Shown here in pieces: positions 24,714 through 33,004 of a stretch of 64,000 bases of DNA. The translations under genes were made by a program, and so were the position numbers. The notes below the pieces were generated by a model, which searched no databases, had not been told where the DNA came from, and saw only the letters and a program-made list of their open reading frames with translations. The stretch spans positions 21,294 to 85,293 of the forward strand of contig WYBB01000082.1 of NCBI GenBank assembly GCA_011526585.1, read 5' to 3'. This DNA is from Deltaproteobacteria bacterium (GTDB taxonomy: Bacteria > Myxococcota_A > UBA9042 > PHBI01). Position 1 is the first letter of the stretch. Each line of letters opens with the position of its first letter.

Positions 24714-25757
24714 TCAGGTCTCGCTGCGGTCGGCGACGCGCTCGAGCACCAGCTTGATCAGCTCGCCGATGTTCTTCGCGCGCGCGGCCTGGGCGTCGGG
24801 CTTGAGCACCGCCTTGACCGCGTCGGCGACCGTCTGCTCGTTCGGCATCTGCCGCGCGAAGGCGGACTGCAGGCGCAGGATCAGCTCCTGGCGGAAGCGC
24901 TCGCGCTGATCCTCGCTCGGTCGGTTGTCGCTCGCGCGCACGACGGCGAGCAGCCGGTCGACGAAGAGGTCGCTCTCGGCCGGCGCCCCGTCGCTCGCGA
25001 CCGCGCGCGCCCCGGTCAGCATCGCCGGCAGCGACGGCCAGCCGGTCACCGCGACGAGACGTGGGCGCTCGGCGTCCGGCCTGAGCTCCGTCACGAGCCA
25101 GACCTCGGCGGCGCGATCGCGCTCGGCGCCTGGCCCCGGATCCTTGCCGAGCCCGATGAGGCTCCGCCCGACGACCGGCAGGCTGTGCACGCCGACGGCG
25201 CGCAGCGGGCCGTCGGGGAGCTCGCCGAGGAGGCGCGTGAGGTTGTCGTCGGAGAGCCCGAGCCGCGCCTGGAGCACCGCGCCGAGACCTCCCCGCGGCG
25301 CCTCGACGATCGCGGCGGCGAGCTCTCGCGCGGCGTCATCCGAGGGCAGCGCGTCGACCCGCTGTCCCGGCACAATCCAGCCGCGCAGCCAGCCGAGCGC
25401 GAGCGGCACCTCGGCGAAGACGCCTTGGACGCGCGGCCCCTCGGCACCGAGCGCGAGCAGGAGGAAGACGCTGCGCGCGGGTTTGTCGGGCTCGCTCGGG
25501 CGGTGGTAGCGCACGCAGCCCAGGGTCTTGTCGCCCTGCGCCGAGAGCACGCCGGCCGAGCCGAAGGCGAAGCCCTCGCGCTTCATCCGCCACAGCTTGG
25601 AAAAGCCTCCGGACTCCCACGCGTCGGGGACGGTGAGCGCGCGGATCGGCCCCTCTGCTGGGACGCCACCGACCAGGGGCGCGCCGTCATCGGGAGCGTT
25701 GAGGCTCTCGACGACGGCGTCGAGCAACGCGCGATGATCGGCTGCGACGCCCTCCAT
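24714..25757 (-). CDS. hypothetical protein, partner gene of the giant protein
   Basis: 347 aa with no recognisable motif. Its ATG shares one base with the TGA of the giant gene (TGATG), implying co-transcription and translational coupling. Confidence 0.6.
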   Translation of the reverse strand: MEGVAADHRALLDAVVESLNAPDDGAPLVGGVPAEGPIRALTVPDAWESGGFSKLWRMKREGFAFGSAGVLSAQGDKTLGCVRYHRPSEPDKPARSVFLLLALGAEGPRVQGVFAEVPLALGWLRGWIVPGQRVDALPSDDAARELAAAIVEAPRGGLGAVLQARLGLSDDNLTRLLGELPDGPLRAVGVHSLPVVGRSLIGLGKDPGPGAERDRAAEVWLVTELRPDAERPRLVAVTGWPSLPAMLTGARAVASDGAPAESDLFVDRLLAVVRASDNRPSEDQRERFRQELILRLQSAFARQMPNEQTVADAVKAVLKPDAQAARAKNIGELIKLVLERVADRSET

Positions 25758-31700: not shown

Positions 31701-33004
31701 CCGAGACGCACGCTCGCCTGGATCTCGCCCGAGGTGACCTTGAAGTCCTCGCTGACCTCGACCACCGCGCGGTTCAGGCGCAGGTAGGTGTAGGGCGAGT
31801 CGATCTCGCGGAAGTTGATGGTGACGCGGCCGGCGCCCTGCCCGTCCGGCAGCCGGATCTTGATCTTGTGGCCGGCGAGCTTGAACTCGATGATCTCGCC
31901 GTTGCCGGTCTTGGGCTCGGCCTCGGGGCGCGTCGCGTCGGCCTCGTGCTCGTCGAGCGGCTCGGGGCAGGCGTCCTTGCACTCGCCCTCGTCCTCCTCC
32001 GGCTCGGGCGCGGGCGGAGCGGGCTCGGGCTCGGGAGGGGTCGGCTCGGGACCGCCACCGCCGCCGCCGCCACCACCGCCACCGCCGCCACCGCCGCCGC
32101 CACCACCGCCGCCGCCGCCGCCGCCACCGCCACCGCCACCGCCACCGCCACCGCCGCCGTTCTTCTCCTCGGCCATCTCGCGGGGACCGCAGGCGGCTTC
32201 GGCTTCAGGGGACAGGCCGGCGATGCCGGGGGTGGGCAGGCCGCCCTCGAGCACCTTGCTCATCGAGGCGGAGGCCTCCTTCTCGGCCGCCTCGACCGCG
32301 CCGCGCCCGCGCTCGGCCTGGGCGACGTGGGTGAGCTCGTGCGCGAGCAGGGCCTGGTCGTCGCGCCGCTCGGGCGCGAAGTCGCTCGGCAGGTAGACGG
32401 TCTCTTCGGCGAAGAGCGCGAGCGCGTCGCCGTGCTGGTCGAGGCGCTCGTCGGCCACCTCGTCGGCGTGGATGACGATGCGCTCGGCGGTGATGCCCAG
32501 CGCAGCGCCGAAGCGTTGCGTCAAGGCGCGGATCTCATCGGCGCGCACGCGGTCGTCGTCGAAGATCGCCGCGAGCTTCTTCTCGGCCTGCTCCATGCCG
32601 ACCGGCAATCCCAGAAGGCGCGCGACCTGGTCGAGCAAGGGCCCGGCGATCTCGCGCCATGGCCCCGACGAAGGAGCGGGCGCCTGGTCGTAGGCGTCGG
32701 CGCGGACCTCGTCGATCAACGAAGCGGCCGTGACCTCGGCCTCCTCGCCCGAGAGGCCACCGACGAGCTGCATGAAACGCTCGGGCGAGAGCGACGCAAG
32801 GGCCTCCTCGAGCGCATGGTCGATCTCGTCACCGCTGAGCTCACCCGCCTCCAGAGCCTCGCGCGCGCGCTCCTCGACCAGGGCCGCGGGCGACTCGCCG
32901 TGCACGGCCTCGAGCAGGCTCTCGACGAGGCGACGGCGCTCGTCCCCGCGGGAGTCCCGTTGTGCTCGTGAGATTGCTTCGCGATTCTTCAAAAAGGCGA
33001 CCAT
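25757..33004 (-). CDS. giant 2415-aa multidomain protein: DUF4157-like HExxH domain, poly-Gly, Pro/Glu linker, ~16 beta-type modules, C-terminal hydrophobic hairpin and terminal domain
   Basis: Single uninterrupted ORF with realistic composition throughout. LFAEETVYLPSDFAPERRDDQALLAHELTHVAQ (aa 197-229) matches the DUF4157 signature. See findings for details. Confidence 0.85.
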   Translation of the reverse strand: MVAFLKNREAISRAQRDSRGDERRRLVESLLEAVHGESPAALVEERAREALEAGELSGDEIDHALEEALASLSPERFMQLVGGLSGEEAEVTAASLIDEVRADAYDQAPAPSSGPWREIAGPLLDQVARLLGLPVGMEQAEKKLAAIFDDDRVRADEIRALTQRFGAALGITAERIVIHADEVADERLDQHGDALALFAEETVYLPSDFAPERRDDQALLAHELTHVAQAERGRGAVEAAEKEASASMSKVLEGGLPTPGIAGLSPEAEAACGPREMAEEKNGGGGGGGGGGGGGGGGGGGGGGGGGGGGGGGGGGGGPEPTPPEPEPAPPAPEPEEDEGECKDACPEPLDEHEADATRPEAEPKTGNGEIIEFKLAGHKIKIRLPDGQGAGRVTINFREIDSPYTYLRLNRAVVEVSEDFKVTSGEIQASVRLGEFVNAESVTLSVNDRGEISTSIRGAQLQVGDKIRGTLDLDVYNDGIAGECIIRSDAINIAPGLSVSDGYLRVKVSKGGAIFAHGMLKVQVGDFVEVSIDACFVDGEFRGHMVAEWTEPFEIAPHVIVERIMLEGCYRKDNWYVAGEIQLGIAEKWGATIRGKYKRTGQTGTWSVEGEVEQREDINFGELRLHSGSAHVKCTDGTFEPATIHQEMQWRTVVGSVDGSYDIEEGKFNARGEAHLEAPFPLGETGASFTDGQIEAVVENNELTIIEGSVTLQLPYQGQPTFELTATDACYKVKENRFDCTGGARVMRDVVFGDEAGFHAVMAAESSGGFVVEDGKLMSLNGNLGFTVKKGSHEIGTGQVELRYGDDTGLDGSATFTLTNRTGIPDIELGPFYLLQNGTFKVEVKKGKLANASVTDVEWEFCQPDGPGKVGGVVNGSYDFDTGNATLSGTVAVKEDWPLAAGEWGSLQLDKGGHGEISATHEGLKSLSGELSFTANFNGFGGGEPFTVHGVVNGRLNPENYKVTGFAQATLEDPIEVPLGETGHKVIITAGSTIKGEVVDNEPTIFSGSLGLEFVHKTMGPLLAGRIEDCVFDAKNGEVSFHGELELLCELEAVLGETGYSLVVMPHVTMLTCDVAKNKLEHIGGSLVLELRNGQTPIMEGRLENADYDVEKEKFSGDISATLITTLSYPQRGENRLPPSVAISLIAGSTITGRVEENSLTEATVDLQMKLAVHGKEIAEANLDGTWDLVKDEVSGTGEAHLIEDLRLGGQAEGGGEAREPTGWALYVKKDSGVSIELSKNALVQVQIDVGLSAKRGADEMAKGDIHGLYKFGDDAAFSGTAHFEVVKAIDLGPVGRFVAKIDLGTECDATVANSALTAVSGKIVLGAYEGQDKYIDLTLQAEWNGKFTGSAECKVLKPIKLGEGTLNGKRFTTWLQDGTGARVDVVEDAPTTINGAVAIDVAMEDKVFARGRFQIDANLSDEESQVNAEGSIDIVDTLELGSLGAFSFKLLPGTGISGKITANKLEYIQGQLLVGIATEQDGDCGELTLQGRWEGGAEPRFDGTASAKITKSMHLGFGAFGYEFGLDPSQITIVMQNGEITSASGQIVFFAEQIGPDEETPLGTLRVRFQGEYTKAPGAAEGNFSGSGTCDVEGELNVGSTPDYKLIVTGGSGIGIDVENNEFTRLHGALNARVEQLNPKPGETVAFLEVSCEVNYVPKDGGQVDVNGSVMITGKKQLLKIDKYEFWLIPAPDGGGTGATVKIEKNEVIEVGGTVSCAVFDGHEDPLIVANAAGKWVKATGLFDGSGDIRLGRDVTFPEDADGAKLVFKKGSGGGGVVVASEIRQLTGDLDVVIHDDVGELVHCKASGEYNAVTNKIVHAEGSAEIMRPIEIGGTGDNAFIRVTKLAGSATVRNSELIAVSGELEFELPRMPGCGGSFSGGWTNASGEDVYWGTGHLDVAMFVDEEKGRGLTGSLTATFNKDGTWNIVGSADYKITPDIGGSVNVQMDQNIDPIIGATFSITNKKLMDARELFAKKLDILPSVTIPVFTGVNLVFGASAGVKLSLRDLLFSTTIGISNWRPLAEGGSNVPDFDADMSILWGLDLQAQLGGYAALTAGIPGLQAGIGAEGIVTLNVPVTVNPTGHLHGGADGFYGDLGISVTIAPTLDLTIKPMAMAEAGPFKYKSDWPGLTYGLGELWKWEWGTNYRFGDQNQATTGAPGETTASSGNKSVQDSATMDPRNIPEREASAPAEKPGRPKVEGDPGKEKEEEGGGPMEEFSKKMEEIGILGKALGALGKLFGYLVGCLTALAVAGPIGLVIYLIIEMVFGDLSWSGLVQAVEDIIAAMPIIIKYLKPYLPDWLVALIEFASGDEPDLLGALFGADDKVRDEVDAGTHRDLPPEGRAKFINIMMDGYCGDADEDRILVILRYSEGKGDLRSVVNQVDGQGDQIVWKLDGRQDTEVCELFDKNGIDY
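32051..32158 (-). repeat. 108-bp (GGY)36 tract encoding 36 consecutive glycines
   Basis: All 36 in-frame triplets are GCC or ACC on the plus strand, which is GGC/GGT on the coding strand. Confidence 0.95.

Follow-up and report, generated by a model that had tools for sequence, protein, structure and literature searches.

A giant DUF4157-headed protein encoded away from contractile injection loci, with a beta-repeat body and a candidate membrane-insertion module

The stretch analysed here (the window; 64,000 nucleotides of contig WYBB01000082.1, Deltaproteobacteria bacterium) contains on its minus strand a single open reading frame (ORF) for a protein of 2415 amino acids (aa), called the giant protein below, which is headed by a domain of the DUF4157 family. 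A preliminary description of the locus had reported an uninterrupted frame of 7.2 kb and, translationally coupled to it, a gene of 347 aa, here the partner gene. Both statements were sound; the ORF listing, the unbroken translation and the guanine plus cytosine (GC) content by codon position (0.66/0.44/0.95, typical for real genes of this 70% GC window) agreed on the frame, and the TGA of the giant gene and the ATG of the partner overlapped as cTGATGg. The giant ORF is genuine, and it typifies a family of giant DUF4157-headed bacterial proteins that had not been described; it is considered typical because its length and architecture fall within the plan that the family shares. The two genes and the segments of the giant protein were delimited as follows.

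25757..33004, minus strand: the whole giant ORF; 2415 aa plus stop codon, ATG start, ~7.2 kb.
32549..33004, minus strand: N-terminal region, aa 1-152; acidic, Arg-rich and polar, with no signal peptide and a net charge of -15.
32204..32548, minus strand: DUF4157/eCIS_core (PVC-metallopeptidase) zincin-like domain, aa 153-267; placed by Pfam model PF13699 and by motif.
31907..32203, minus strand: low-complexity linker, aa 268-366; 36 Gly (nucleotides 32051-32158) and a Pro/Glu stretch.
27275..31906, minus strand: beta-repeat body, aa 367-1910; an N-terminal beta domain, then an antiparallel beta-meander repeat array.
26549..27274, minus strand: conserved amphipathic beta module, aa 1911-2152 (the 'Gly/Ala/Leu-rich segment' of the preliminary description); placed by family conservation and by strands in an AlphaFold2 (AF2) model.
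26357..26548, minus strand: polar Pro/Glu/Lys-rich linker, aa 2153-2216; disordered in AF2 (predicted local distance difference test, pLDDT, <50).
26108..26356, minus strand: hydrophobic helical hairpin region, aa 2217-2299; core at aa 2235-2278 (nucleotides 26171-26302) with a central AGP turn, then an LPxW motif.
25760..26107, minus strand: C-terminal helical domain, aa 2300-2415; motif G-x-C/T-G-D-x-D-E-x-x-I-L-x-I-L, AF2 mean pLDDT 84.
24714..25757, minus strand: partner gene, 347 aa; TGATG overlap with the giant gene, no known family.

The family was visible only by exhaustive HMMER search, in which a profile of aa 1261-2415 was compared with 1.84 billion cluster representatives (50% identity); word-indexed protein searches were swamped by low-complexity words and returned few relatives. 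At E <= 1e-3 this search found 203 representatives, of which 116 also passed E <= 1e-30. Local hidden Markov models (HMMs) from an eight-sequence alignment were run over the family proteins, and the 54 full-length representatives shared one plan: a polar N-terminus, one to three DUF4157 domains, a low-complexity linker, a variable beta-meander array, the beta module, one hydrophobic hairpin and a variable tail. DUF4157 was present in one copy in 42 of these proteins, in two copies in 11 and in three copies in one. The repeat body ranged from 477 to 4,396 aa (approximately ninefold), the tail after the beta module from 190 to 2,600 aa, and the total length from 1,224 to 5,241 aa (median 2,384). 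The few source names attached to relatives, which stem from metagenome-assembled genomes, were 'Myxococcota bacterium', 'Deltaproteobacteria bacterium' and, for one fragment, 'Kiritimatiellia'. One confirmed locus was obtained, and the genome of the window itself did not come up, when 185,579 species-representative genomes were scanned with two conserved clade motifs, a metagenome scan yielded nine loci, and a scan of viral contigs yielded no relative. Relatives included P0001, with 73% identity, and a syntenic orthologue at locus L016, with 71%. Within the giant protein, the beta module, hairpin and C-terminal domain were best conserved, and the N-terminus and linkers least.

The N-termini were uniformly polar and poorly conserved across the family. 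Hydrophobicity on the Kyte-Doolittle scale exceeded 1.6 in 19-residue windows at only two places in the giant protein, aa 1981-1999 and aa 2235-2278; there was no hydrophobic segment at the N-terminus, in agreement with the earlier claim that a signal peptide is lacking. The DUF4157-like zincin signature noticed previously proved to be a match to PF13699 at aa 161-233 (E = 6.6e-11; 42.7 bits, relative to a cut-off of 22), which covered profile positions 6-78 of 79 and was the sole library match of the giant protein. The metal-site signature was intact, with HELTHVAQ at aa 222-229 (HELTH at aa 222-226, nucleotides 32327-32341, precisely where it had been placed) followed by E241-K-E243-A, while E223, H226, Q229, E241, E243 and A244 were invariant in the eight-sequence family alignment. 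As far as the sequence can tell, this HExxHxxQ...E pattern is the signature described for the PVC-metallopeptidase (PMC3482391).

The poly-Gly tract that follows (aa 283-318) was 36 residues long, so that the previous count was exact, and was encoded by mixed GGC and GGT codons; the Pro/Glu linker PEPTPPEPEPAPPAPEPEEDE was also found in the translation. The low-complexity linker differed among orthologues, and the closest relatives had three shorter Gly runs split by short polar stretches. In this organism, a number of independent short-read (Logan) contigs broke off once ~210-300 residues of the gene had been covered, roughly where the poly-Gly tract lies. The giant genes are thus hard to assemble from short reads, and full-length copies are systematically missing from assemblies; the contig ends probably also explain the absence of the full protein from the sequence collection.

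A long body of beta-type modules had been proposed for the centre of the protein, and it was found to be both beta-rich and repetitive. An iterated repeat HMM produced 13 significant matches across aa 580-1870, and the repetitiveness was also seen in cross-alignments with a relative of 3,750 aa at several offsets. An AF2 model covering aa 1581-2415, which was based on a nine-sequence alignment and had a mean pLDDT of 70.8, was all-beta and of up-and-down antiparallel topology to aa ~2151, with pLDDT mostly 70-90 (about 66-87 for aa 1581-1910). Two strands of 28 residues were modelled in the beta module. The strands of aa 1993-2120 were strongly amphipathic, one face having Kyte-Doolittle values of +2.3 to +3.3 and the other -0.8 to -1.5. 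Overall the giant protein was very acidic, with a net charge of ~-170. The Gly/Ala/Leu segment, charged linker and hydrophobic hairpin that had been listed after the body were all there, at aa 1911-2152, 2153-2216 and 2235-2278 respectively.

Comparison of the aa 1581-2415 model with the PDB by Foldseek placed LptD, PapC ushers, porins and ApoB100 on top (E = 7e-6 to 1e-3). However, the TM-scores of the LptD, usher and porin matches were 0.09-0.15 and their root-mean-square deviations ~30 Å, and they therefore reflect the general resemblance among beta meanders, not a fold in common. An outer-membrane protein barrel, LptD, usher or AsmA-like fold was rejected for the beta region on these grounds, despite good E-values. 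The giant protein has in common with LptD, usher and porin barrels, and with AsmA/TamB sheets, a long up-and-down antiparallel amphipathic beta sheet; what sets it apart is that sequence similarity, a signal peptide and a Pfam match are all lacking, in addition to the low TM-scores. Membership of the AsmA/TamB/DUF490 group was not supported, there being no Pfam match, no N-terminal hydrophobic segment and TM-scores within the same range. A structure search of a viral structure library found nothing meaningful.

Sequence libraries were no more informative beyond the head domain. The preliminary description had allowed that profile searches might place the body and C-terminus in a known family, and neither region matched any Pfam, NCBIfam, PADLOC or PHROG model or any PDB sequence; searches of PDB sequences, with the whole protein and with a C-terminal profile, returned only artefacts of the poly-Gly linker. 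The body had been judged by eye to be neither YD/Rhs-like nor haemagglutinin-like, and markers of Rhs/YD proteins, haemagglutinins and type VI secretion system (T6SS) effectors (RHS/YD, FilH, PAAR, VgrG and MIX) had no Pfam or NCBIfam match in the giant protein or its neighbours. Libraries of anti-phage defence and phage proteins gave no PADLOC match and, for the giant protein, no PHROG match. Thus, ~2,000 residues, comprising the repeat body, beta module, hairpin and helical domain, lie outside Pfam (2025), NCBIfam (2026) and solved structures and are new here; the head domain, and the general logic of DUF4157/PVC-metallopeptidase effectors, were already known. The architecture of the giant protein was not found described in the surveyed literature that mentions DUF4157 or PVC-metallopeptidase.

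Between the beta module and the hairpin, the linker of aa 2153-2216 was the least conserved segment in comparison with close relatives. The hairpin core (~44 aa) was the most hydrophobic stretch of the giant protein (Kyte-Doolittle up to 2.37); the hairpin region occurred in most family members, and P2300 and W2302, which follow it, were invariant in the eight-sequence alignment. The terminal domain, given previously as ~145 aa, is present, but its folded part is smaller, ~115 aa (2300-2415). Its model had a pLDDT of ~92-97 over most of its length (residues 30-117), its motif is later joined by D-G-x-E...L-L, and it occurred in 35 of the 54 full-length family representatives.

The motif of the C-terminal domain, G-x-x-G-D-x-D-E-x-x-I-L-x-I-L...R/S, recalls the GxGTDE...IL..R of the annexin repeat. 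When a profile of 39 C-terminal domain sequences was compared with the PDB, 20 of 23 matches were annexins, in register on TDE..LI.IL..R, all with E = 0.19-1.3. However, the Pfam Annexin model (PF00191) did not match the 147-aa C-terminus even at E <= 1, nor the multi-repeat protein P0140, and Foldseek with the domain model (pLDDT 84) placed no annexin in the top 50, the best matches being designed or TPR-like helical repeats (E >= 0.23). An annexin identity, suggested by the motif and the sub-threshold PDB matches, was not adopted and the domain was left unassigned, since neither Pfam nor Foldseek supported it and there was no significant profile or fold match; a distant link is possible. P0140 belongs to a separate class of DUF4157 proteins of ~1,800-2,250 aa (with P0134, P0142, P0148, P0154 and P0155), whose body consists of 9-13 tandem copies of a ~90-aa helical 'GxTGDxDE' domain; in P0140, the one member of the class that was scanned, Pfam recognises DUF4157 only. 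Fusions of DUF4157 and annexin have been reported in Haliangium (PMC3894181, PMC3482391), and these tandem arrays of the C-terminal domain in other DUF4157 proteins bear a likeness to them.

Other family members carry recognisable domains where the giant protein does not. P0104, a distant relative of 4,481 aa, has Phage_lysozyme, two PG_binding_1, SH3_3, DUF6861, TNT and EndoU domains after the hairpin. Among 17 other long or divergent members, PG_binding_1 was found in three and SH3_3 in three. P0002 has an OmpA domain between two DUF4157 domains, and in the P0002 and P0006 clades the helical C-terminal domain is replaced by ~110-135 aa of further hydrophobic helices. For these peptidoglycan and toxin domains, the site of action predicted from sequence is peptidoglycan or the interior of a target cell, and no other observation hints as strongly that the family may serve antagonism.

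Partner homologues were found directly downstream of the giant gene in L016, L002 (P0001), L004/L006 (P0003/P0004) and L010 (P0007), often overlapping it or close to it. The pair is kept in five lineages, in which the giant protein has 27-73% identity to that of the window; the two-gene module proposed previously therefore stands as a unit, but to call it self-contained was an overstatement. No partner homologue was present downstream in L007 or L017, or in clades without the C-terminal helical domain. The partner occurred in five of the seven lineages with that domain and in none of the four without it, in a sample that is small and phylogenetically non-independent. The protein itself has no signal peptide, no Pfam or PDB relative and no known immunity family, and a PHROG search produced a chance-level match only (E = 0.019). 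A promoter and terminator scan of the two-gene module found nothing above chance.

The L016 locus was syntenic with the window, in the order prkA ... giant - partner ... lon - clpX - clpP - tig. Identity between the two was 94% for Lon and 84% for PrkA, relative to 71% for the giant protein and 47% for the partner; sequence change in the module has therefore been much more rapid than in the genes around it. The C-terminal domain is 82% identical across the same two genomes, so that the partner diverges far faster than the domain that it might be supposed to neutralise, and the reading of the two as an immunity pair was downgraded. It is possible that the partner is an immunity protein; a role as chaperone or accessory factor would be equally likely. 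L016 also contains a gene for a transglutaminase-core protein (16391-17989, plus strand), inserted between the partner gene and lon and absent from the window.

All of the sizeable ORFs of the window that were scanned with Pfam were housekeeping genes or unannotated, with no sheath, tube, baseplate, VgrG, PAAR or Rhs gene among them; the earlier statement that such genes and those of a T6SS are lacking nearby holds for the full 64 kb. One flank comprises a PMT-like glycosyltransferase, uvrA, PP2C, a nucleotidyltransferase, a kinase, nuoF and further putative nuo-operon ORFs, then ORFs that occupy the positions of trigger factor, clpP and clpX (assigned by position), and then lon, which converges on the giant-partner module. 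On the other flank are a divergent 221-aa membrane protein, an ORF with sigma-70 region 4, prkA, moaD/E and trpE and, farther out, trpD, trpC, an aminotransferase, an Mrp-type ATPase, a PDZ protein, a major facilitator superfamily transporter and a pseudouridine synthase. The 221-aa ORF (33184-33849, plus strand) has an N-terminal transmembrane helix and a weak likeness, well short of the cut-off, to the gliding protein GltJ (E = 2.9e-4); its position is kept in L016 and in Logan contigs. The small ORF at 34050-34559 (plus strand) has sigma-70 region 4 only, and a MoaD-MoaE fusion protein is encoded at 36979-37692 (minus strand). An 854-aa ORF at 53095-55659 (plus strand) matches an AAA+ lid domain and a Fis-type helix-turn-helix only, and its frame overlaps the pseudouridine synthase ORF on the opposite strand. 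At the edge of the window, a gene of the phage integrase family (56129-57298, minus strand) is followed by several ORFs without a Pfam match (57400-64000), and together these may be an integrated element.

DUF4157 is a core marker of eCIS (contractile injection systems of the extracellular type), in which it is often separated from the toxin by linkers of >1000 aa (PMC8213781). The loci of relatives were inspected for genes of contractile injection systems (CIS). The preliminary description had considered that homologues might always be encoded inside injection loci; instead, they were found in ~10 independent contexts without such genes, in flanks of up to 10 kb. In the lineage of P0002, P0003 and P0004, however, a double-AAA ATPase of 737-792 aa was encoded ~270 nucleotides upstream of the giant gene, on the same strand.

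Double-AAA ATPase genes upstream of the giant gene: L001 7360-9738; L004 7517-9730; L005 7004-9220; L018 184-2562; L020 170-2539.

The best plasmid homologue of this ATPase (2e-93) was an ATPase encoded terminally in a CIS locus of Nostoc. The further top plasmid matches that were inspected, from Deinococcus, Haloferax and Rhodococcus, likewise lay inside CIS loci (four of four overall), with sheath, tube, baseplate and DUF4255/Pvc16 genes; in the PDB, the same ATPase showed likeness to VCP/Cdc48 at only ~1e-38. On sequence grounds, the adjacent ATPase is CIS-type (Afp15/Pvc15-like), of the CDC48-related clade typical of PVC-type systems (PMC3482391). There were no CIS structural genes within 10 kb in the ATPase-bearing loci, and a CIS-type AAA+ ATPase was absent from the window. 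When two ATPase-bearing lineages were compared, the AAA protein and a 2-hydroxyacid dehydrogenase were each 63% identical and the giant proteins 29-34%; since the flanking housekeeping genes are shared, the ATPase adjacency reflects one ancestral arrangement. The Nostoc locus, on plasmid pn3 of Nostoc sp. UHCC 0926 (L024 7503-13727), has its own DUF4157 protein of 2,074 aa, with Gly-rich transmembrane segments and a C-terminal GDGNCFFHA motif that is OTU-peptidase-like by eye. This protein shares the DUF4157 domain only with that of the window.

Among described systems, CIS cargo is the closest in plan. AlgoCIS Cgo1 and Cgo2 and the eCIS-associated toxins (EATs) share with the giant protein a polar N-terminus, a DUF4157 zincin-like domain and a large C-terminal part (bioRxiv 10.64898/2026.05.27.728243; PMC8213781; PMC3482391), as well as, in one related lineage, an adjoining CIS-type AAA+ ATPase. 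In AlgoCIS, Alg15, which belongs to the same ATPase clade, loads cargo by way of the disordered N-terminus, DUF4157 being dispensable for loading (bioRxiv 10.64898/2026.05.27.728243); the domain has been predicted to be a releasing peptidase (PMC3482391). The giant protein differs in that its gene is away from a CIS operon in all loci seen, in being known here from genes alone, and in having a C-terminal part of ~2,050 aa that consists of beta repeats and a membrane-type module, not an enzyme or toxin. Tme of Streptomyces davawensis, a CIS effector of 2247 aa with DUF4157, transmembrane helices (PMC11126660) and an endonuclease, and the Nostoc pn3 protein are also giant, DUF4157-headed and provided with internal hydrophobic helices, and the pn3 locus resembles those of the giant protein's relatives in having a CIS-type AAA ATPase nearby. 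However, Tme is largely disordered or helical and tape-measure-like where the giant protein is beta-rich, and both proteins are encoded inside CIS clusters. With the PVC-type polymorphic toxins (PMC3482391) the family shares a constant N-terminal PVC-metallopeptidase and C-terminal ends that vary across the family, P0104 ending in TNT and EndoU; many of those toxins are also without a clear immunity gene. Here the differences are that the C-terminal domain is conserved in the subfamily of the giant protein, and that its constant region is a new beta-repeat and membrane module and not RHS, FilH or ALF repeats. Given the CIS-cargo N-terminal plan, the ATPase-adjacent relatives and the relative with TNT and EndoU, the giant protein fits among DUF4157-headed effectors as a new architectural variant. 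The preliminary description had found the architecture unassignable to any described system; this is true of the body and C-terminus, which lack a library match, but not of the N-terminal plan, which is the known plan of CIS cargo.

The reading proposed here, tentatively, is that the giant protein may be an effector that does not use Sec, that probably leaves the cell through a CIS whose genes lie at another place, and that has a C-terminal module for insertion into membranes. The protein would be made without a Sec signal. Because the polar N-terminus and DUF4157 form the header of CIS cargo, export would most likely proceed through a CIS encoded elsewhere in the genome, or by another route driven by a CIS-type AAA+ ATPase; uncultured Myxococcota are known to contain eCIS clusters (PMC11937823). 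The DUF4157 zincin, whose HExxHxxQ...E pattern is intact, would, judging from the literature, process or mature the giant protein, and the variable beta-meander array could serve as scaffold or spacer, its length being adjustable. The amphipathic beta-hairpins and the hydrophobic helical hairpin may then insert into a membrane, probably that of a target cell, where the inserted C-terminal unit would anchor the tail or pass it across. The tail is a small conserved helical domain here, and in distant relatives comprises peptidoglycan-binding and lytic domains and TNT/EndoU. The 347-aa partner would be a cytoplasmic accessory factor, chaperone or protective partner.

Several observations weigh against this proposal. 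Published sets have 88% of eCIS toxins encoded no more than ten genes from the operon (PMC11297309), whereas no CIS-operon gene was found in the 64-kb window, which extends 25 kb on one side of the module and 31 kb on the other, and no CIS or T6SS genes were found in the ~10 independent loci of relatives within the flanks available (up to 10 kb). The adjacency of the ATPase in one lineage may reflect synteny alone. A folded, beta-rich protein of 256 kDa would be an awkward cargo for a tube lumen. The case for membrane insertion consists of a sequence pattern and an AF2 model with the modest mean pLDDT given above, 70.8, in which the hairpin helices were modelled at low confidence. No toxin domain was recognisable in the giant protein, and its C-terminal domain is conserved and not polymorphic (51% identity where the body has 34%). 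Finally, the contrast between partner and C-terminal domain across the two syntenic genomes (47% and 82%) is ill-suited to a tight toxin-immunity pair.

Some of the same observations would be expected if the giant protein stayed at home. The hairpin would then tail-anchor it in the inner membrane of the producer cell, the array would be a cytoplasmic or envelope scaffold with an anchoring, structural or developmental role, and DUF4157 would be a regulatory protease. The absence of a signal peptide from both the giant protein and its partner, the position of the most hydrophobic segment near the C-terminus, the conserved and non-polymorphic C-terminal domain, and the location of the gene among housekeeping genes, in a locus that is syntenic in two related genomes, are all consistent with this. 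It is nevertheless considered unlikely: DUF4157 has a strong association with CIS and polymorphic-toxin proteins that are exported (PMC8213781, PMC3482391), the OmpA, PG_binding_1, SH3_3, lysozyme, TNT and EndoU domains of relatives act outside the producer cytoplasm, the module diverges fast relative to its neighbours, and body length varies ~ninefold within the family.

A delivered protein need not depend on a CIS. By analogy with large clostridial and MARTX-type toxins, the giant protein could be an autonomous toxin, released by lysis, in vesicles or by an ATPase-assisted route, that itself moves its C-terminal part through the membrane of a target. It would have a built-in translocator in the beta module and helical hairpin, and an autoprocessing protease in DUF4157. 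The order of protease, long beta scaffold, hydrophobic helices and C-terminal payload fits, P0104 has tandem payload-like domains, long amphipathic beta-hairpins are present and there are no CIS genes near any of the ~10 loci. Foldseek also aligned the model weakly to pore forms of perforin-2 and pleurotolysin (ranks 27, 45 and 50; probability 0.08-0.16), but these matches were not significant, there is neither homology to known self-translocating toxins nor an evident release route, and the CIS-type ATPase adjacent in relatives points back to a CIS. This account thus appears rather improbable. In a variant that is judged likewise doubtful, the family would have left the CIS behind to become a free-standing delivery device, capable of self-export and self-insertion without sheath, tube or baseplate, with the beta module and hairpin as its own translocator; in some lineages, only a retained CIS-type AAA+ unfoldase and the small partner would help.

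The structural matches invite a further reading, in which the amphipathic sheet forms a taco- or belt-like groove, like those of AsmA/TamB, the LptD N-terminus or ApoB, and carries lipid between membranes as a bridge-like protein. LptD is indeed the top Foldseek match (E = 7e-6 to 1e-3), the matches also include ApoB100 and microsomal triglyceride transfer protein, and the strands are strongly amphipathic. Yet the TM-scores (0.09-0.15) and deviations (~30 Å) signify generic beta-meander likeness, AsmA, TamB and DUF490 have no Pfam match, no N-terminal anchor or signal peptide exists to put 2,200 residues in the periplasm, and neither the DUF4157 head nor the toxin-bearing relatives fit, which makes a lipid carrier very unlikely. 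If the giant protein were an adhesin of the cell surface or an S-layer-like fibre, with a stalk formed by the repeats and export by some unrecognised route, this would account for the variable repeat number, the net charge of ~-170 and the OmpA-like peptidoglycan anchor of one relative. Such a role is scarcely credible when neither a signal peptide nor a type I secretion/RTX, type V, type IX or MYXO-CTERM signal could be recognised, Ig-like, cadherin and haemagglutinin repeat families gave no match, and the conserved hairpin and the C-terminal toxin domains of relatives are left unexplained.

DUF4157 is the best marker of CIS cargo, and CIS effectors are usually found beside CIS operons. The present family is a sizeable set (~200 clusters, mostly metagenomic) of giant DUF4157 proteins with ~2,000 residues lacking domain-library cover, and, against the usual rule, its genes lie apart from any CIS locus. 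If these proteins are CIS cargo, effector catalogues based on proximity miss them and the limit on cargo size needs rethinking; if they are not, then DUF4157 and the CIS-type ATPase have a life outside the CIS. In either case, the beta module and hairpin, as predicted from sequence pattern and model, are a candidate for a new membrane-insertion unit.

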